Origin: Patescibacteria group bacterium
Lineage (GTDB): Bacteria; Patescibacteriota; Patescibacteriia; SG8-24; DYFX01
Assembly: GCA_038062835.1 (NCBI GenBank)
Contig: JBBTWH010000001.1
Span: 42,982-106,981 of the forward strand
Reading direction: 5' to 3'
Length of the DNA: 64,000 nt
The position numbers and the translations under genes were made by a program. Positions 432 through 48,629 of this stretch are shown here, piece after piece. A model generated the notes under the pieces. The model ran no database searches and was not told the origin of the DNA. It was given only the letters and a program-made list of their open reading frames with translations. Numbering within the stretch: the stretch's first letter is position 1; each line of letters begins with the position of its first letter.

Positions 432-1109
432 TTACTTCTTTTTCTTGGCGGCGGCCTTCTTGGCCGGAGCCTTGGAGGCTTTCGCGGGCTTCTCGGCGAC
501 CACGGCCTTTTCGGCCTTCGGAGCGGCGGCCTTCTCGGCCTTCACCGGTTCCGCGGCGGACGTCTTCGCCGGAGCGGAGAGGTTCATCGCCTTGATGATC
601 ATGTCGAGCTTCGCGTTGATGGCGGCGAACTGCTCCTTGGAGCGGTCCTCGGCCGGGGCCGCGCGCTTGAACTCCTTATAGTCCGTCGCGCCGGCTTTCT
701 CGTTGCCGAAGCAGGCACGGCAGTACACCGGCTTGCTGCCGTTCGGCTTGAACGGCACTTCGCAGCCGTTTCCGCACGAGGCGCACGTCGCCTTGAAGAG
801 CTGCTTCTCCTCGCGATCGAACCCGCGGTCATCGCGGCGCGGCGCGGAGTCGCGGTCGAAGCGCATCGGCGCGGACGACGTATCTCCGTCCTTCTTGAAG
901 CACTCGCGGCAGTAGATCGGCCGGCTGCCGTTCGGCTTGAACGGCACTTCGCAGCCGTTTCCGCAGGTGGCGCAGGTGGCCTGATGCATCTGCGGGCGGT
1001 CGAACCCGCGGTCGTCGCGGCGATTGAAGCTTCCGCCTCCGCCGAACTTGCGGTCATTGCCGCCCTTCCATCCGCCCCCCTGGGGTCGGGTACCATTAGA
1101 CTTGTACAT
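432..1109 (-). CDS. tandem-duplicated zinc-ribbon protein with Gly/Arg-rich N-terminus and Lys/Ala-rich histone-H1-like C-terminal tail
   Basis: ATG is preceded by AAGGAGG. Two roughly 45-aa repeats each carry a CxxC-(17)-CxxC element (CATCGNGCEVPFKPNGSRPIYCRECF). The C-terminus reads AEKAAAPKAEK...KKAAAKKKK. Confidence 0.7.
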   Translation of the reverse strand: MYKSNGTRPQGGGWKGGNDRKFGGGGSFNRRDDRGFDRPQMHQATCATCGNGCEVPFKPNGSRPIYCRECFKKDGDTSSAPMRFDRDSAPRRDDRGFDREEKQLFKATCASCGNGCEVPFKPNGSKPVYCRACFGNEKAGATDYKEFKRAAPAEDRSKEQFAAINAKLDMIIKAMNLSAPAKTSAAEPVKAEKAAAPKAEKAVVAEKPAKASKAPAKKAAAKKKK

Positions 1110-1147
1110 TTTTTCCTTTATTTTGCCTCCTTATTGAAGACATCGCA

Positions 1148-1192
1148 GTATAGCCCAAATCCGGGAAAAATGCAAGGGGGCTATGGTAGAAT
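1148..1192. promoter_or_regulatory. divergent promoter region, with TATACT (-10) for the minus-strand gene and TGgTAGAAT extended -10 for the plus-strand gene
   Basis: The minus strand reads ggGCTATACTgcg and the plus strand reads ctaTGgTAGAATcg. Both lie upstream of SD-bearing starts. Confidence 0.35.
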
Positions 1193-1215
1193 CGGGACAG
1201 ACGCCCTTTCCAAGG

Positions 1216-1569
1216 AGGAACGCCATGGATGAGCCTCAGACGCCCATCACCCTGACCGATGCGGCGGCCGCGAAACTCATCGAGTTCCGCGACGCGGATG
1301 AGAAGACGCGCGGCAAGCCGCTCCGCCTCGCCGTCCAAGGCGGCGGGTGCGCCGGCTTCAACCAGGTGCTCTACTTCGACGATCCAAAGCCGGACATCGA
1401 CCAGGTCTTCGACATCAAGGGCCTCACCGTCCTCGTCGATTCGATGAGCCTGATGTACCTCGCGGGCACCGAGCTCGACTACGTCGACGGCCTGAACGGC
1501 ACTGGCTTCACGTTCAACAACCCGAACGTGAAGTCCACCTGCGGTTGCGGCAGCTCCTTCTCGCCATAG
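1216..1569 (+). CDS. HesB/IscA-family iron-sulfur cluster insertion protein (ErpA/SufA-like)
   Basis: GGAGG lies 7 nt upstream. The protein ends in CGCGSSF, with a conserved Cys in the LAVQGGGCAGF motif. It is about 117 aa. Confidence 0.8.
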   Translation, partial: RNAMDEPQTPITLTDAAAAKLIEFRDADEKTRGKPLRLAVQGGGCAGFNQVLYFDDPKPDIDQVFDIKGLTVLVDSMSLMYLAGTELDYVDGLNGTGFTFNNPNVKSTCGCGSSFSP

Positions 1570-1571
1570 CG

Positions 1572-1602
1572 AAACCGCCACCTTACCAGTGGCGGTCTTT
1601 TC
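1572..1602 (+). terminator. intrinsic terminator after the IscA-like gene
   Basis: accgccac-cttacca-gtggcggt followed by CTTTTC. Confidence 0.5.
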
Positions 1603-1610
1603 ATCTGCCG

Positions 1611-1646
1611 AAAAAGTATCAGATACCTTAGTATCTGATACTTTCG
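1611..1646. terminator. 14-bp perfect hairpin (aaagtatcagatac/gtatctgatacttt), bidirectional terminator between convergent genes
   Basis: Perfect inverted repeat with A-run and T-run flanks, between the erpA-like stop and the minus-strand gene stop. Confidence 0.45.
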
Positions 1647-1650
1647 TTTG

Positions 1651-2553
1651 TCATCGCTTTGCGCCCTTGCAGTCGGGGCAGTCCACCTCGCGCTTCGCCT
1701 TGTAGGTCTCCTCCTTCTTGCCGTGGCACATGCAGCAGGCGAACTGGCCGTTCTTGACGGCGTCGTTCGCCTCTCCCCAATCCCGTCCGGCTCCGATCTT
1801 CTTCGTTCCGCTGCCGCCGCAGAAATCGCACGGCGGCCAACCTTCGAGTTCTTGCTCGCTCTGCGGAGGATTGGGCATCGACATCTTCCCCGTGCCGCCG
1901 CAGTGATGGCAGGGGTCCGTCCCGCTGCCCTTGCAGTGCGTGCATTTGACGGTCGCCTCGTATTCCTGCTCGATCTTGCCGCTGCCGCCGCAGCGCGCGC
2001 ACGGCTTCTTTTCCTCCGCCTTCGTCCCGCCGCCGCAGCGGCCGCACTTCCCGCTCTTCTTTTCCCGCATCCGTTTCACCCACTCCCAAAGGCCGAGGAG
2101 GGCGAGCATCGTGCCGATGGTCCAGGCGGCTGTTTCGAGTATCGGCTGAAGCGAGTCCGGGGCGTATTCGGACGTCTCTTCAAGGAATTCCTGGGCGTTC
2201 TCGAGGGGGAACTCTTCCGGTTCCGCCGCCGCGCTCGCGTCAGGCATCGGGATGTTCGGCGTCGGCGGAGCCGAGGGTGCCGGGAAGGCCGACTGCTCGG
2301 ACGGCGCAGTCGCCGTGGACGTTTCCGGCTCCGCGGCCGTATCCGACGGTTCAGTCGCGCTGATGGCGGCCGGAGTCTCTGCGTTTTCCCTGCCGCAGCC
2401 CCAGTGGTCGCCGCCGGTCGGGATGCACATCACGCCGTACCCCGTCGGACATTCGAGCGCCGGCTTGGCCTGTTCGTCGCAATTAACGGCGGCGAAAGCC
2501 GTCCCCGGGAGGAGCGCGAGCGCGAAGGAAATCGAGACGAGGAATCTCTTCAT
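1651..2553 (-). CDS. membrane-anchored DnaJ-type (CxxCxGxG x6) zinc-finger protein without J domain
   Basis: Signal peptide MKRFLVSISFALALLPGTAFA, a Cys-rich ectodomain, a TM helix (WTIGTMLALLGLWEWV), then six CxxCxGxG repeats. TGaTATAAT lies 13 nt upstream of the ATG. Alternative start at 2565. Confidence 0.6.
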   Translation of the reverse strand: MKRFLVSISFALALLPGTAFAAVNCDEQAKPALECPTGYGVMCIPTGGDHWGCGRENAETPAAISATEPSDTAAEPETSTATAPSEQSAFPAPSAPPTPNIPMPDASAAAEPEEFPLENAQEFLEETSEYAPDSLQPILETAAWTIGTMLALLGLWEWVKRMREKKSGKCGRCGGGTKAEEKKPCARCGGSGKIEQEYEATVKCTHCKGSGTDPCHHCGGTGKMSMPNPPQSEQELEGWPPCDFCGGSGTKKIGAGRDWGEANDAVKNGQFACCMCHGKKEETYKAKREVDCPDCKGAKR

Positions 2554-2628
2554 ATCAGAGGTCATTATATCAATATCAGCCGTTTCTGCTATACTGGAGG
2601 TGTTTAACTATATAGCGATACGCGAGGT

Positions 2629-4547: not shown

Positions 4548-4826
4548 ATGGCAACGGATGGACCAACGCCCCCTGACTGCGACCAAGACATCTACGAGAA
4601 CGGTGAACATGTATTCACCACTGACACCATCCCACCGAACGCAATGGATGGTTGGGTGAAGAAGGTCGCCAAGCTCTCCGGTCAGCGCGTCGATTGGCAC
4701 TTCGTCGGAGGGCGCGCTGTGGTCCGCGCCCTCGGTGATATCACCAAGATCAAGAAGGCGATCGCGAAGCTCATGCCAGAGCACGACCGTCTGCACCTCG
4801 ATGCTTGCCGAAAAATACGGCCTTGA
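4548..4826 (+). CDS. hypothetical protein (92 aa)
   Basis: AAGGAG lies 7 nt upstream of ATG 4548. It overlaps the end of the upstream gene, so the two look translationally coupled. Confidence 0.4.
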   Translation: MATDGPTPPDCDQDIYENGEHVFTTDTIPPNAMDGWVKKVAKLSGQRVDWHFVGGRAVVRALGDITKIKKAIAKLMPEHDRLHLDACRKIRP

Positions 4827-4872
4827 GTCATAGAGTGTTGCCTCGCAACAACTCCTCGCGCACCCGCACGGT

Positions 4873-4918
4873 AAAGAGCACGCTCGCTCATGCCGTTCTG
4901 GTGCGCTCTTTGTTTTCG
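4873..4918 (+). terminator. intrinsic terminator (aaagagcacgc...ggtgcgctcttt + GTTTTCG)
   Basis: Inverted repeat followed by a T-run after the 4826 stop. Confidence 0.4.
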
Positions 4919-5107
4919 TCCGACCTGCTGCCATCCCTTAGTTCGGTACCTGGCACCTGTGGTAAGGACCAGGCGCGGTTCCAGGGAAAACACGATGCTG
5001 TGAATCGGTACCTGGTACCAAAGGGACAGGTATCCGCCGGTGCCGCCATCCTCATGGAGAAGGCGTTCCTCGCGCTGCTCGCGCGCACCGTGACTTCAGA
5101 CCGCACA

Positions 5108-5129
5108 CCGGCGACTTCGCCGGTTTTTT
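5108..5129 (+). terminator. intrinsic terminator (ccggcga-ctt-cgccgg + T6)
   Basis: Perfect 7-bp stem followed by TTTTTT. Confidence 0.5.
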
Positions 5130-5186
5130 CGATCGGACGTTCACGTCGCTTTTACGAAGGCGGCACATGAAGTATGATGATCGTCA

Positions 5187-5630
5187 ATGACGACTCACGC
5201 CATGAAACGCCAACGCCTAGTCTGGACGGATGATAAGAACACCGGGGTCCCTGAGATCGACGGACAGCACGAATCTTTTTATGGGATCGCCAACGCGCTC
5301 TCAGACTTCGCCGAACATCCGGTCATCGACAAGAACGGAGTCCGGCAGGCTTGGGAGAAACTGGTCGATCATATCTATAAACATTTCGAGGAGGAAGAGG
5401 GCCTGCTCAAGCGCCGAGGCTACCCGAAACTGAAGGAGCACCTCGCCGAGCACGACAAGTACAGGGAGCAGATCAAGAAGTTTTTCTTCAGGCTCCACAA
5501 CAGCACGACGAACCTGGACTCTCGCCAGCAAGCGGAGGCGATCGCAGATTTCGCGAACGAGTGGGCCGTGAAGCACACGCTCGCAGCGAAACAAGAGGCA
5601 ATCATCTTTCTCAAGAAGGATCGACAGTAG
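5187..5630 (+). CDS. hemerythrin-like metal-binding domain protein
   Basis: Has W..D....G...IDxQH and H..HFxxEE plus downstream His motifs typical of bacteriohemerythrin. Alternative start at ATG 5202. Confidence 0.65.
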   Translation: MTTHAMKRQRLVWTDDKNTGVPEIDGQHESFYGIANALSDFAEHPVIDKNGVRQAWEKLVDHIYKHFEEEEGLLKRRGYPKLKEHLAEHDKYREQIKKFFFRLHNSTTNLDSRQQAEAIADFANEWAVKHTLAAKQEAIIFLKKDRQ

Positions 5631-5640
5631 TGGTTCCGAT

Positions 5641-6099
5641 ATGGCACACCCCCAGACGACTCCACCCTTCGAGTTCTCAAAGATCAGCGAGAACGTATTT
5701 ATCGGCACAAATGCGTGCTGCCGTCTGCACTTCGACGAGACCCTGACCGCGCAGGGCGTCACTGCGGACATCTCGCTCGAAGGAGAGGCCATCGATCATC
5801 CGCAGGGCGTACGCACGTTCGTCTGGCTGCCAACGCCGGACCACGCCCCGCCATCGTATGAAAACGTCCTCGTAGGCATCGCGGCTCTCAAGCAGATGCT
5901 GAAGAATGGACAGAAGGTCTATATCCACTGCAAGAACGGCCATGGTCGCGCCCCCACCTTGTATGCCGCGTACCTCATCCTTGAGGGCAGCCTGTCACCA
6001 GAGGCAGCGGTTCAAGCCATCAAGAAACGCCGTTCGGTCATCCATCTCGAAGACGGTCAAACAGCGTTCCTTCAACGACTGTCTGCGCACAAAGCGTAG
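5641..6099 (+). CDS. dual-specificity (Tyr/Ser/Thr) protein phosphatase
   Basis: Carries the HCKNGHGRAP active-site signature (HCxxGxxR). It starts 11 nt after the hemerythrin stop. Confidence 0.7.
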   Translation: MAHPQTTPPFEFSKISENVFIGTNACCRLHFDETLTAQGVTADISLEGEAIDHPQGVRTFVWLPTPDHAPPSYENVLVGIAALKQMLKNGQKVYIHCKNGHGRAPTLYAAYLILEGSLSPEAAVQAIKKRRSVIHLEDGQTAFLQRLSAHKA

Positions 6100-14643: not shown

Positions 14644-14731
14644 GGAGGGGTCGCATAGTGGTCGAGTGCGCTCGCTTGGAAAGCGAGTATACCGCAAGGT
14701 ATCGGGAGTTCGAATCTCCCCTCCTCCGCCA
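14644..14731 (+). tRNA. tRNA-Ser(GGA), type II with long variable arm
   Basis: Acceptor GGAGGGG/CTCCTCC, anticodon arm CTCGC-TTGGAAA-GCGAG, T-arm GGGAG-TTCGAAT-CTCCC, discriminator G and an encoded CCA. Confidence 0.9.
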
Positions 14732-44797: not shown

Positions 44798-45397
44798 TCA
44801 CATATGAGCGACCAGGAAACGACGAAGGGCGTACGGTTTGATCGGGACCAGATCGAAGCACCAGGAGTGCGCACCATGGAAGGCCCAGGGCGCGAACCAC
44901 ACGTGGCTCTGGTCGCGCCACGGCGATCCGAGCGCGACGATCGGGTAGAAGTGGATGAGATCCCGATACCGGTCTGAGAACGCCTCCATCTCGTGGAGAG
45001 TCACCGGGCGGTAGCGATAACGCGCCAACCGCTCGGTCGCGTCCGTCAGCGAGACCGGCCGCTTGAAGTCGACGAACTTGAGGCCGAGCGTGGCCGAGAC
45101 GAGGCCGGGCTGGCAAGGGAAGTACTTCGCCTTCAGGAAGCAGGCGACATGTTCGACGCGTCGTTCCTTGGTGATGCGCGCGAACAGGTCCTCGATCGGC
45201 ACGGCGTAGTCGACCGTCACGGTCCAATCGCGATCCTCCGGCACGGGCCGGTCTTCGTCCTCGTCTTCGATGGCGCACTGGATGCGCTCCATCGTCGCAT
45301 CGAACGGGAGCGTCCCTTCTTCGAGCCGTCGTTCCAGGTCCTTCAGCCTCTTGTGCAACTTCCGATACTGTTCGTCGGTGACACCTTTACGCGTCAT
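44798..45397 (-). CDS. hypothetical protein (about 199 aa)
   Basis: ATG 45397 has AAGGAGG 6 nt upstream and a TTGACG-17-CATACT promoter (about 45427-45455). The track ORF extends to 45685. Confidence 0.5.
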   Translation of the reverse strand: MTRKGVTDEQYRKLHKRLKDLERRLEEGTLPFDATMERIQCAIEDEDEDRPVPEDRDWTVTVDYAVPIEDLFARITKERRVEHVACFLKAKYFPCQPGLVSATLGLKFVDFKRPVSLTDATERLARYRYRPVTLHEMEAFSDRYRDLIHFYPIVALGSPWRDQSHVWFAPWAFHGAHSWCFDLVPIKPYALRRFLVAHM

Positions 45398-45461
45398 GAC
45401 AAACCTCCTTGGTGCGGGAAATTCCGCGCGCGAAGTATGCAGTCGTATGGATGGCGCGTCA

Positions 45462-45499
45462 AGCGGAAAAGAAAGCCGCCCCTGCGAGGAGGGGCGGAC
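45462..45499 (-). terminator. intrinsic terminator (ccgcccct-cctcgc-aggggcgg + CTTTCTTTTCC)
   Basis: Strong hairpin plus U-run on the minus strand, ending the structured RNA region downstream of murJ. Confidence 0.55.
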
Positions 45500-45513
45500 T
45501 AAGATAACAAAGC

Positions 45514-45834
45514 GGTTGGTTTCCTTTAGCCCCAGGATGCTGACGGCACGAGGCCATTTGTGTACCCGACTGCTGGAGCCGCTGCGGTGGTCACGTCCTC
45601 GCGGACTTCTTCCACCGGTCGCCTGTCGCTGCGACCTTGGCGGTCCCTTAACCCCCGACGGCGCAATGCGCGACCGCTTCTGCACGCCGCCGGTTTTGGG
45701 CTAGCTCCCCGTCCTCCGACGGGTGTCGGAGGAGCTCCGCCCGGCTTACGCCGGTTCTGCTTAGAGGCGACTTATCATCCCGAAGGAAATGCGCCCCGAA
45801 AGGGAATCCCGATTTGGTTTCTTGGAACCCAACC
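45514..45834 (-). ncRNA. candidate structured ncRNA (about 320 nt) closed by an 11-bp terminal helix; possible divergent RNase P RNA
   Basis: The ends GGUUGGGUUCC and GGAAACCAACC pair 10 of 11. Internally there is a P4-like pairing, GAUAAGUCGCCUC with CGACAGGCGACCGG, resembling GGAAAGUCCGGGC with CGACAGAACCCGGC of bacterial RNase P. A GGGGUUAAGGGACC stretch resembles AGGGUGAAAGGGUG. The region is intergenic and followed by a terminator. Confidence 0.4.
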
Positions 45835-45846
45835 GTTCCCAGCGTA

Positions 45847-47523
45847 TCACAGGTCCTGCGTGTCCGAAACCGCCAAGGGCTTCTCGAACTTCAAGAAGCG
45901 TCGATGCATGGCGCCGGCGATCGCCATCAGCTCTTCCGACTTCAGCAGATAGAGGACGAGCACATACGCCACGATGCCCAACAGGCTGGCGACGGACGCT
46001 TCCTTGAGCACCGAGAGGCTGCCGCGTGTGTCGAGAGTGACCATCCGCGGTTGGACGACCTGCCAGGCGACCCACGCGCACGCCGCCGCGCCGAGGAAGA
46101 ATTTCCCGAAGGCGCGCAGGATGCCGGCGCCGCCGATGCGGCCGAATTTTTTTCTGAGGACGAAGGCGAGGACGATCACCTGCAAGGCCGACGCGACCGA
46201 GAAGGCGGCGGCGAGCGCCAGGACGCGGACGTCATCCACGCCGAAGAGGCCGAGCCAGAGCCAGACGGTGGCCGCGCCCGGACCCGTCGAGAGCCAGGCC
46301 TTGCACGCGAGCGTCACGGCGATGTTGACCGCCATGGCGGCGAACGAGACCAGGACCGGGATGAAGGTGTTCTTGAGGGCGTAGAAAGCGCGGGCCAGGA
46401 GCGGCGCGAGGCCCTGGAACGCGAGCGAGACCGCGAAGACACCGAGCGAGGCGGCCGCGAGGCGCGTGTCGTTCCAGTCGAGCCCGCGCGCGCCGATCAG
46501 CACGCGGACGATGTGCACGCGGAGCACGACGGCCATAGCCGAGAGCGGGATCAGGAAGAACAGGATCTGCCGGAAGGTGGCGGCGAAGATGTCGCGGAAG
46601 CCGTCGCGATCGCCGCGGGCAGAAGCCTCCGAGAGCGCCGGGAAGGCCGCGATCGAGAACGGGATGGCGAAGGCGCCGAGCGGCACCGCCGAGATGTTCA
46701 TCGCCAGGTTGAAGAGAGCCGGGGCGCCGACGCCGAAGGTCGTGCCGATGGCCGTGCCGATGAACTGGCTGATCTGCGAGATGTCGACGCCGAGGACGCG
46801 CGGCAGGAAGAGCCGCCCGACCTCGCGCACGCCCTCGTGCTTCGCGTCGAGCGCGAAACGCAGCCGCCAGCCGAGCGCCATGGCCGGCGGGACCTGCACC
46901 AGGAGGTGCAGCACGGTGCCGATGATGGCGCCATACGCCACGCCCATGACACCGAACGGCTTCGAGAGGAAGACGATGCCGAAGATGATGGCGGCGTTGT
47001 AGATCGGCGGCGCGAAGGCCACCGCCAGGAAACGCCGGTTGGAGTTCAGGACGCTGGAGAAGACCGCCGAGAGCGCCAGGACGAACGGCGAGAGCATCAT
47101 CACCCGCGTCAGCATGATCGTCAGCTGGAGCTTCTCGCCGGTGAACCCGGGAGCGATGTGCGGCACCAGCCAGTGCGCGCCGAGCGAGAGCGCCAGGCTC
47201 AAGACGCCCATCACCACGGCCACGATCGAAAGGATGCGGTCCGTCATCCGCCAGGCTTCTTCGCGCCGGCCCTTCGCCAGGTATTCGGTGAAGACCGGGA
47301 TGAAGGCCGCCGCGAAGACGCCCAGGATGAGGAGCGCGAACAGGAAGTTCGGCACCTGGAACGAGGCGTAATAGGCGTCGAGCTCGTCGCCCACGCCGAA
47401 ACGCCCGACCAGCATGCGGTCGCGGAACAACCCGAGGATGCGCGACAGGATCGAACTGACGCCGATCAGGAGCGCGGCGCCGGCGATGGTCTTGGATTCC
47501 TGGTTGAAGAGCTTGGAGATCAT
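45847..47523 (-). CDS. murJ: lipid II flippase MurJ (MviN)
   Basis: MISKLFNQ...GVSSILSRILGLFRDRMLVGRFG, with 14 TM segments. The track ORF extends to 47616. Confidence 0.85.
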   Translation of the reverse strand: MISKLFNQESKTIAGAALLIGVSSILSRILGLFRDRMLVGRFGVGDELDAYYASFQVPNFLFALLILGVFAAAFIPVFTEYLAKGRREEAWRMTDRILSIVAVVMGVLSLALSLGAHWLVPHIAPGFTGEKLQLTIMLTRVMMLSPFVLALSAVFSSVLNSNRRFLAVAFAPPIYNAAIIFGIVFLSKPFGVMGVAYGAIIGTVLHLLVQVPPAMALGWRLRFALDAKHEGVREVGRLFLPRVLGVDISQISQFIGTAIGTTFGVGAPALFNLAMNISAVPLGAFAIPFSIAAFPALSEASARGDRDGFRDIFAATFRQILFFLIPLSAMAVVLRVHIVRVLIGARGLDWNDTRLAAASLGVFAVSLAFQGLAPLLARAFYALKNTFIPVLVSFAAMAVNIAVTLACKAWLSTGPGAATVWLWLGLFGVDDVRVLALAAAFSVASALQVIVLAFVLRKKFGRIGGAGILRAFGKFFLGAAACAWVAWQVVQPRMVTLDTRGSLSVLKEASVASLLGIVAYVLVLYLLKSEELMAIAGAMHRRFLKFEKPLAVSDTQDL

Positions 47524-48629
47524 TTCAGCTTGAGGAGCTTGGCCGCCTGCCGCGCGATGGAGCCCTCCTCGTCGGTCGGTACCACCAGGTGCTTCAGCTT
47601 GAACGGCGCGAACCATCTCATGATCAGCACACGCATCTTGTCCGAGCGCTCGCCGATGCCGGCGGTGAAGACGACCGCGTCGCAGCCGCCCATGACGGCC
47701 ATGAACTGGCCGACGTAGCGCACGACGTCGTAGACGAACATCTCAAGCGCGAGCTTGGAACGCTTGTCCCCTCTCGAAGCGCCCTCCATCACGTCGCGCA
47801 TGTCCTTATGGCCGGAGATGCCGAGCGTGCCGGACTTCTTGTTCATCAGCTCATCGACCTGGTCCGGGGTCATCTTCAGTTCGCGGATGAGCCAGATGGG
47901 GATCTCCGAGTCGATGTCGCCGCAGCGCGTGGACATGGTGAGGCCTTCGAGCGGCGTGAAGCCCATCGAGGTGTCGACGGCCTTGCCGCCCTTCACCGCG
48001 GAGATGGAAGCGCCGCTGCCGAGATGGCAGGTGACGAGCTTCAGCTTGGAAAGAGGCTTCTTGAGTTTCTTGGCGGCTTCGGCCGCGACATATTCGTGCG
48101 AGATGCCATGGAAGCCGTACTTGCGCACGCCGTGCTTCTCGTAGAGCTCGTACGGCAGCGCGTACATGTAGGCGTAGTCCGGGATCTTCGTGTAGAAAGC
48201 CGTGTCGAAGACGGCGACGTTCGGCACGCTCGGCATCAGCTTCATGACGGCCTCGATACCCATCACGTTCGGCGGATTATGGAGCGGCGCGAGCTTGTAG
48301 TATTCCTTCAGCTGGGCGATGACCTTCGCGTCGATCTTCGTCGGCACCGTGAGCGCCGTGCCGCCGTGGACGACGCGGTGCCCGAACGCCTTCACTTTCT
48401 TCACGTCGAGACCGGCCTTCGCCAAGGCGGCGAAGGTCTTGGAAAGCGCGTCGGCGTGGTCGGGCACGGAAGCGAACGTCTCCCTGATCTCCTCGCCGCC
48501 GTTCTTGAACTTCAGGAACGGCTTGTCGAGGCCGATGCGTTCGACGATGCCCGAAGCCAGCGTCTTCATCTTGAGGTCGAAGACCTTGAACTTGAACGAG
48601 GAGGAGCCGGAGTTGATGACGAAGATCAT
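47520..48629 (-). CDS. ackA: acetate (propionate) kinase
   Basis: MIFVINSGSSSFKFKVF, with GHRVVHGG, CHLGSGASI and EGSIARQ motifs. Confidence 0.9.
   Translation of the reverse strand: MIFVINSGSSSFKFKVFDLKMKTLASGIVERIGLDKPFLKFKNGGEEIRETFASVPDHADALSKTFAALAKAGLDVKKVKAFGHRVVHGGTALTVPTKIDAKVIAQLKEYYKLAPLHNPPNVMGIEAVMKLMPSVPNVAVFDTAFYTKIPDYAYMYALPYELYEKHGVRKYGFHGISHEYVAAEAAKKLKKPLSKLKLVTCHLGSGASISAVKGGKAVDTSMGFTPLEGLTMSTRCGDIDSEIPIWLIRELKMTPDQVDELMNKKSGTLGISGHKDMRDVMEGASRGDKRSKLALEMFVYDVVRYVGQFMAVMGGCDAVVFTAGIGERSDKMRVLIMRWFAPFKLKHLVVPTDEEGSIARQAAKLLKLK

Follow-up and report, generated by a model that had tools for sequence, protein, structure and literature searches.

A probable gene for a structured noncoding RNA of an undescribed family between murJ and lepA in high-GC Patescibacteria

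Introduction

Does the DNA downstream of murJ in a Patescibacteria group bacterium encode a divergent RNase P RNA, or an RNA of some other kind? The question is raised by a window of contig JBBTWH010000001.1 (the window being the whole stretch of DNA analysed, 64,000 nucleotides (nt) in length), in which the minus strand carries, in order, murJ (Pfam MurJ, E = 2e-76), a structured RNA of 321 nt, an open reading frame (ORF) of 199 amino acids (aa) and lepA. A reading made from the letters of the window, hereafter the sequence-only reading, had proposed the RNA as a candidate for a divergent RNase P RNA, and had named a long structured noncoding RNA without known class as the fallback. The comparison of homologous loci described here makes it probable that the locus is a stand-alone gene for a highly structured noncoding RNA of about 320 nt, belonging to a previously undescribed family. 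The fallback is strongly supported, by 14 helices and 37 base pairs changed on both sides in eight copies, and the identification as RNase P RNA is abandoned. Sequence comparison supports a promoter, a terminator, a closing helix (P1), a variable 5' domain and a conserved 3' domain (P5, P6/P6a/P7 and P8), and the gene looks accessory rather than essential, and narrowly distributed.

Homologues and structural alignment

Twenty-five loci were compared (L001 to L025, including one duplicate, L020, which is the same contig as L006). Six were obtained from a scan of GTDB genomes with MurJ, 15 are contigs encoding MurJ homologues found by protein search, and four came from a pattern scan of metagenomes. 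A homologue of the RNA body (45514..45834 of the window, minus strand, from the 5' strand of P1 to its 3' strand) was detected in seven loci (L017, L007, L021, L022, L019, L024 and L006; nhmmer E values from 1e-60 to 1e-100), for a total of eight copies. These are 66-89% identical to one another, share 109 invariant alignment columns, and all lie between murJ and lepA on the strand of those genes; in seven of the eight loci the RNA directly follows murJ. No reading frame is conserved across the copies on either strand. A protein-coding reading was considered and rejected: the long antisense frames differ between copies, and the corresponding peptides are rich in arginine, proline and alanine, of low complexity and patchy in their similarity.

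Folding of the window copy as a single sequence yields -165.8 kcal/mol with z = -1.4, which is insignificant by itself, and the case for structure therefore rests on comparison. MAFFT and RNAalifold, applied to the raw sequences, misaligned the variable hairpins and gave conflicting structures, so the alignment was built by hand, with the sequences split at invariant anchors. The result de-gaps exactly to the real sequences and omits a 95-nt unalignable interior of the L006 5' domain. This eight-sequence structural alignment contains 104 base pairs in 14 helices, with 97.5% of cells paired. Both partners have changed in 37 pairs, versus 18.2 +/- 2.8 in shuffles, none of which (0/500) reached the observed number, and sliding the partners by 1-3 columns leaves just 2-4 both-side changes and 38-50% pairing. 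When the consensus pairs are enforced, the cost over the minimum free energy is 2-6 kcal/mol in all eight copies. Four of the helices (P2c, P6a, P7 and P8a) differ in sequence between lineages with their pairing kept. There are also two conserved GNRA tetraloops, and about 34 unpaired nt in junctions and loops are invariant.

Architecture of the RNA

All features below are on the minus strand of the window. The RNA is closed by P1, in which the 5' strand GGUUGGGUUCC (45824..45834) pairs with GGAAACCAACC (45514-45524) at 10 of 11 positions, with one G.A mismatch; the sequence-only reading had placed the RNA at 45834 to 45514 with this same terminal helix, and both were located as claimed. Among the homologues, a U-A pair of P1 becomes C-G in L024, a C-G pair becomes G-C in L006, and the G.A mismatch is replaced by U-A or G-C. 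P1 is followed by the single-stranded junction J1/2 (AAGAAACCAAAUCGG, 45809..45823), whose AAGAAAYCAA is invariant or nearly so in all eight copies.

The 5' domain (45704..45808) consists of P2 (UUCCCU / GGGGAG) around the hairpins P2a, P2b and P2c. Changes on both sides include a G-C to C-G replacement in P2a (GGGGCG...CGCCUC, 45764-45797) in L019, which reads GGGCCG/CGGCCU, as well as four of the eight pairs of P2b (CCGGC-GUAA-GCCGG, 45741-45754) and seven of the ten pairs of P2c (UCCUCCGAC-ACCC-GUCGGAGGA, 45712-45733). The number of hairpins in this domain varies, with four in L024 and L006. A local hairpin, GGGAUUCCC, was considered as an alternative to P2 and rejected, as L024 and L006 read GAGAUUCCC at this point.

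The 3' domain is enclosed by P3, in which UAGCCC (45698..45703) pairs with GGGCUA (45527-45532). The P3 core AGCC/GGCU is invariant in all eight copies, and complementarity is the evidence that suggests this long-range helix. Within it, the P5 hairpin (45655..45693) has a 9-bp stem, CCGGCGGCG/CGCCGUCGG, in which three pairs have changed on both sides, and a conserved apical loop, ..GAAGCGGUCGCG.., in which AAG and GUCG are invariant. The following junction, J5/6 (GGGUUAAG, 45647..45654), is conserved in its GGU only, the rest being UAUU, UAUC, AA or CAUU. It leads into a three-way junction (45575..45646) formed by P6 (GGA-CCGC / GCGG-C-UCC), P6a (GGUCGC-AGCGACAG-GCGACC, 45617-45636) and P7 (GGUGG/CCACC, 45586-45616), the last with an inner hairpin, GUCC-GCGA-GGAC, that carries a GNRA loop. 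Each of these three helices has four sequence variants. The entire P7 arm is missing from L006, which indicates that the RNA is modular. The last segment (45535..45574) comprises an AGCAGUC junction and then P8 (GGGUA/CAUCC) with its inner hairpin P8a (AUGGC-CUCGU-GCCGU); CAGUC and the GGGU/CAUCC pairing are invariant, and six of the seven pairs of P8a have changed on both sides.

The comparison also points to a kissing contact between two loops. The apical loop of P5, which has the form ..YYGUCGY.. (CGGUCGC, 45668-45674, in the window), is complementary to the loop of P6a, of the form RCGACRR (GCGACAG, 45623..45629). Five copies have the C-G form of this contact, GUCGC/GCGAC, and three (L017, L007 and L021) have the U-A form, GUCGU/ACGAC. 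The three U-A copies fall in different murJ lineages, and L022, a C-G copy, has a murJ 94% identical to that of L017; the switch would therefore have arisen more than once, or have moved by recombination. Contact within one molecule and contact between molecules are both compatible with the data. GUCGC occurs three times in the RNA (45764-45771, 45668-45672 and 45631-45635) and GCGAC twice (45625-45629 and 45618-45622), repeats that may allow alternative pairings.

Transcription signals

An extended -10 element, TGATACGCT (consensus TGnTAnnnT; 45841..45849), precedes the CGG at the start of P1 by 6 nt. The same element is found at this fixed distance in all eight copies, as TGATACGCT, TGATACGAT, TGATAGAAT, TGCTACGCT or TGTTATAAG/TAAGTT. 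Most copies, that of the window included, use its TGA as the stop codon of murJ. It is retained in L024, where a 55-aa ORF separates the RNA from murJ, and in L006 a full promoter, TTGACA plus TATAAG, is located after the murJ stop. In the murJ-lepA spacers of relatives that have no RNA, the element was not found.

A scan for promoters and terminators detected an intrinsic terminator immediately beyond the RNA (CCGCCCCU-CCUCGC-AGGGGCGG and then CUUUCUUUUC, 45466..45497), with a stem (45497-45476) of eight pairs, seven of them G-C, followed by CTTTCTTTTC. A terminator is present 3' of the RNA in every homologue, and its stem sequences differ in L022, L024 and L019. The scan also identified a sigma-70-type promoter for the next gene, outside the RNA (TTGACG-17-CATACT, 45434..45462), as its one site, compared with 0.0 expected in shuffles; a similar promoter occupies the equivalent position in L019, and lepA has an identical TTGAAA-type promoter directly upstream whether the RNA is present or absent. 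The sequence-only reading had described both the GC-rich 8-bp terminator with its U-tract and the TTGACG-17-CATACT promoter, and its view that the RNA is not simply a 5' untranslated region (UTR) is strongly supported by the separate promoter of the next gene. From these signals, the RNA is inferred to be its own transcription unit, with a predicted transcription start and 3' end.

L021 alone has an additional hairpin, GUCCCCC...GGGGGAU, in the approximately 50 nt between P1 and the terminator. On the other side of the RNA, the murJ ORF as called (45847-47616, minus strand) encodes 589 aa, and nearly all close homologues, which cover 94-95% of it, have 556-558 aa. The actual start codon of murJ probably lies some 31-33 codons beyond the first ATG.

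Comparison with RNase P RNA

RNase P RNAs of the Candidate Phyla Radiation (CPR), which includes the Patescibacteria, are divergent yet detectable with RF00010 at lowered thresholds, and lowered thresholds were required for 10 of 35 circular CPR genomes (Lui et al. 2021, PMC8172020). The premise of the sequence-only reading, that RNase P RNA is often missed in reduced genomes, is reasonable in light of that work, and the identification deserved a real test because CPR RNase P RNAs fall below Rfam thresholds. The window RNA resembles RNase P RNA (RF00010 type A, RF00011 type B and the divergent CPR forms) in several respects. Its size fits, a P1-like terminal helix joins both ends of a multi-domain body, and there are GNRA hairpins. 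The topology is loosely similar, with a terminal helix, a 5' hairpin domain and the long-range AGCC/GGCU helix enclosing three sub-domains. The window sequence is able to form GUCGCC/GGCGAC, the host lineage is one with hard-to-detect RNase P RNA, and Rfam scans found no rnpB elsewhere in the 64-kb window. Nevertheless, it is very improbable that this is an RNA trimming tRNA 5' leaders that standard models have missed, as they do in some CPR genomes; the identification fails on five counts, and the RNA is concluded not to be RNase P RNA.

The covariance-model comparison that the sequence-only reading had suggested, with models of RNase P RNA, signal recognition particle (SRP) RNA and tmRNA, was carried out with cmscan and all 4227 families of Rfam 15. 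At E<=10, none of the RNase P models, which comprised RF00010, RF00011 and the archaeal, nuclear and minimal types, matched either the window (45350-45950) or the most divergent copy (L006, 4700-5045); this cut-off corresponds here to about 10-12 bits, and Lui et al. searched down to 5 bits.

The P4 helix of the sequence-only reading, for which compensatory changes had been claimed, does not survive comparison, although its strands and the third quoted internal motif are all present in the sequence. Its 5' strand, GAUAAGUCGCCUC (GAUAAGU-CGCCUC), falls within P2a, where it makes up the internal loop and the 3' strand, and its 3' strand, CGACAGGCGACCGG (CGACAG-GCGACC), falls within P6a, as loop and 3' strand, so that the proposed pairing conflicts with two local helices that themselves covary; in P6a, GGUCGC/GCGACC becomes GAUCGC/GCGAUC or UGCCGC/GCGGCA. 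Mutual pairing of the two strands is possible in 88% of cells, a value matched by 232 of 500 shuffles, with one both-side change, and the 5' strand has no counterpart in L006. The apparent complementarity is explained by the recurrence of GUCGC and GCGAC within the RNA. The third motif, GGGGUUAAGGGACC, had been likened to CR-II, one of the conserved regions (CR) of RNase P RNA, and was compared with the conserved junctions of the specificity domain (CR-II/CR-III, AGGGUGAAAGGGUG-like). It is specific to the window and unconserved across the copies, the homologues reading GGGGUUAUUGGACC, GGGGUUAUCGGACG, GGGGUAAGGACC and GGGGUCAUUGGACC; part of it is the J5/6 junction, and its GGAC is the 5' strand of helix P6.

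Unlike RNase P RNA, the window RNA also has no conserved CR-I/CR-V and no covarying P4. Several further features of RNase P RNA, namely an A-rich J3/4, a P4 with a bulged U, an ACAGAA before the 3' strand and a P7-P10 cruciform, were not seen in the consensus. Finally, four loci (L009, L012, L018 and L023) have no copy at the syntenic site and L004 has only a decayed one; such patchy presence at the locus suits an accessory gene, not an essential one. For a structured RNA of RNase P size in a reduced genome, motif resemblance alone is thus insufficient for annotation as rnpB.

Comparison with other RNA families

At Rfam gathering thresholds, the whole window yields only a tRNA-Ser and 20 related loci yield nothing relevant. 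At the permissive E<=10, region 45350-45950 gives three chance matches and no RNase P, SRP, tmRNA or 6S RNA, and a window-wide search at E<=1 adds nothing relevant. The chance matches encountered (EAV_LTH, NsiR4, which falls on the terminator, RAGATH-32, CRISPR-DR33 and PhotoRC-I) were all far below thresholds and were dismissed.

In being a stable RNA gene of comparable length with its own promoter and terminator, the window RNA would be similar to tmRNA, SRP RNA and 6S RNA. However, no model of these matched the window copy or L006 at E<=10, ARAGORN detected no tmRNA in the window (its sole find was the tRNA-Ser at 14644), and a tRNA-like end, a tag reading frame and the SRP domain IV motif were not seen.

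The window RNA shares with OLE, ROOL, GOLLD, the raiA motif and HEARO, all of them large ornate bacterial RNAs, the character of a stand-alone intricate noncoding RNA with conserved unpaired nt and loop-loop contacts. None of them matched at E<=10 in the window copy and L006, or at E<=1 across the window, and there is no match to them in sequence or structure. The present RNA also differs in its phylum and gene neighbourhood, in being represented by eight sequences from one narrow clade, and in being smaller than OLE, ROOL and GOLLD. ROOL, GOLLD and OLE are described by Kretsch et al. (2025, PMC12286853) as forming homo-oligomers via loop-loop contacts, and by analogy the kissing loop found here could likewise serve the formation of homo-oligomers.

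The lysine and cobalamin riboswitches are alike in having multi-helix junctions, a kissing loop, a closing P1 and a terminator immediately downstream. The window RNA, in contrast, has no Rfam match, no credible antiterminator and a promoter after its terminator, and is nearly twice the size of those aptamers. No description of the RNA was found in the literature. To our knowledge, no such RNA has previously been described as specific to the Patescibacteria.

Distribution and gene neighbourhood

The relatives of murJ found in GTDB genomes belong to high-GC metagenome-assembled genomes of Patescibacteria, some of them under wrong names. Four entries (L003, L004, P0003 and P0086) were deposited as uncultured Gammaproteobacteria, Candidatus Baltobacteraceae and Candidatus Methylomirabilis, and these odd names are probably the result of mis-binning caused by a high GC content unusual for Patescibacteria.

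What the murJ-lepA spacer contains changes from one member of this clade to the next, so that it forms a hotspot of variable cargo. The four loci already named as lacking the RNA have an empty spacer of about 40 nt (e.g. L009 4678-4718), and the comparison there was confined to the murJ-lepA locus; one of these, L018, has a murJ 81% identical to that of the window. In at least eight loci the site is filled by other genes. A 374-aa orphan ORF is present in L001-L005 and L010 (spacer 4678-5939 in L010), a HicB-like pair in L008 (spacer 4678-5380), an NYN nuclease matching the PADLOC candidate defence family HEC-09 in L014 (spacer 4666-6059), a minus-strand 146-aa ORF in L016, a 1737-aa protein in L025 (spacer from 1758 onward), and other orphan ORFs elsewhere. 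Because this spacer carries different cargo in different relatives, the RNA looks accessory and not essential. A decayed 3' fragment in L004 (3042-3111; nhmmer E = 0.008), with P8, P8a and a strand resembling the 3' strand of P1 without its 5' partner, sits after the 374-aa ORF just upstream of lepA and suggests that this lineage formerly had the RNA and lost it.

Recombination is hinted at by L021. Its RNA (560-884, minus strand) is 86% identical to the window copy, with an identical P8a hairpin, whereas its murJ (896-2572, minus strand) resembles the murJ genes of three RNA-less loci, L010, L012 and L023, far more than it does that of the window, to which most of its 150-nt segments are 65-79% identical (86% for the first). 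Only over the final 60-100 nt does this murJ become more similar to the window clade. Given an RNA close to the window copy beside a murJ resembling RNA-less lineages, the L021 RNA gene may have been acquired by recombination.

No integrase, reverse transcriptase, TnpB or IscB gene adjoins the RNA in any locus, although flanking repeats were not systematically searched. Immediately upstream of murJ, L008 encodes a bAvd-like protein together with a reverse transcriptase (Pfam bAvd and RVT_1; 1550-2975), a pairing that, as gene content only, is typical of a diversity-generating retroelement.

The metagenome scan, which used a strict pattern from the 3' domain, returned only four loci, one of them the duplicate of L006. 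The collection is incomplete for Joint Genome Institute samples and did not return the L017 contig, so that absence from it proves little. Viral contigs gave no matches for two patterns, one of which excludes L006-type sequences only, and phage blastn in distant mode gave no match.

In the window and in L019, a gene for a 199-aa orphan protein (44798..45397, minus strand, in the window) intervenes between the RNA and lepA, with a promoter of its own. The window protein shares 66% identity with its counterpart downstream of the L019 RNA (689-1288, minus strand), in a different murJ lineage, and the gene is for this reason taken to be real. Only five homologues were found among 5.8 billion proteins, and there is no match in Pfam, NCBIfam, PADLOC or PHROGs. 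An obligate partnership was considered and rejected, since the gene follows the RNA in only two of the eight loci and has no family match. Judged from gene order, the protein could be a partner of the RNA, or it could be unrelated cargo.

Alternative explanations

Two readings would tie the RNA to a neighbouring gene, and both are unlikely. As a cis-regulatory leader, it would be a very large riboswitch or attenuator controlling read-through into lepA or the 199-aa gene. It is always upstream of lepA, on the same strand and terminator-ended, its complex fold has conserved junctions of the sort typical of ligand-binding RNAs, and in six of the eight copies the 3' strand of P3, GGGCUAA, can pair with a UUAGCCC or UUAGUCC just 5' of the terminator. 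That pairing, however, does not covary and shares only some 2 nt with the terminator arm, and is therefore no credible antiterminator. Furthermore, beyond the terminator lepA and the 199-aa gene each have a separate promoter, that of lepA being the same in relatives without the RNA, and L021 has its extra hairpin between RNA and terminator. Typical aptamers are far smaller than 320 nt. The other such reading, which is equally doubtful, makes the RNA a structured 3' UTR of murJ, or a small RNA processed from the murJ mRNA, that affects the stability of that mRNA. The position of the RNA directly after murJ in most loci would fit, and with no terminator between the two, read-through transcripts include the RNA. 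Yet the distance from TGnTAnnnT to the RNA is fixed even in L024, with its intervening ORF, L006 has a full promoter beyond the murJ stop, and the murJ genes of many near relatives have no RNA. That the sequence is GC-rich intergenic DNA arising by chance, or a decaying remnant without function at the RNA level, can scarcely be entertained. The insignificant folding z of -1.4 and the location in a variable hotspot would suit it, but the pairs changed on both sides, the covarying kissing loop, the number of invariant columns at 66-89% identity, the conserved promoter and terminator and the want of a conserved reading frame all contradict it.

A stand-alone gene for a structured RNA of an undescribed family thus remains the probable explanation, and several points weigh against it. 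The alignment was fitted by hand to the structure, which inflates the pairing statistics; the sequences number eight, several of them closely related; and P2, P3 and P8 are invariant, so that complementarity alone supports them. Where transcription starts, where the RNA begins and ends and how stable it is are all predictions from sequence, any function, partner or action in trans is hypothetical, and read-through from murJ would also yield the RNA as a 3' UTR. Because the collections were scanned with strict, exact patterns, the family may be wider than it appears or a described relative may have been missed.

Proposed role and significance

It is possible to outline how such a gene would work. 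The extended -10 element overlapping the murJ stop would start the RNA, and the unconditional intrinsic terminator would end it. The RNA would probably adopt a compact fold, with P1, a variable multi-hairpin 5' domain and a conserved 3' domain, and would then probably act in trans as a pre-organised scaffold, in which the conserved junction core may bind a protein or a small molecule or may catalyse a reaction, or the RNA may self-assemble via its loop-loop contact.

For now, general importance is limited by the restriction of the eight copies to one clade. The RNA is, at about 320 nt, small enough for chemical probing and cryo-electron microscopy, and its covarying kissing loop offers a ready mutational test. 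Bacteria have few large, intricate RNAs with a conserved unpaired core, and earlier examples proved to be ribozymes, riboswitches or self-assembling RNA particles. Little has been charted of the RNA biology of the Patescibacteria, which are ultra-small symbionts, for the most part uncultured. It is plausible, on balance, that the RNA described here is the first known example of a new class of compact bacterial RNA confined to a high-GC lineage of Patescibacteria, in which the conserved core and the loop contact would serve catalysis, ligand sensing or RNA-only self-assembly, and which may work with the 199-aa protein.

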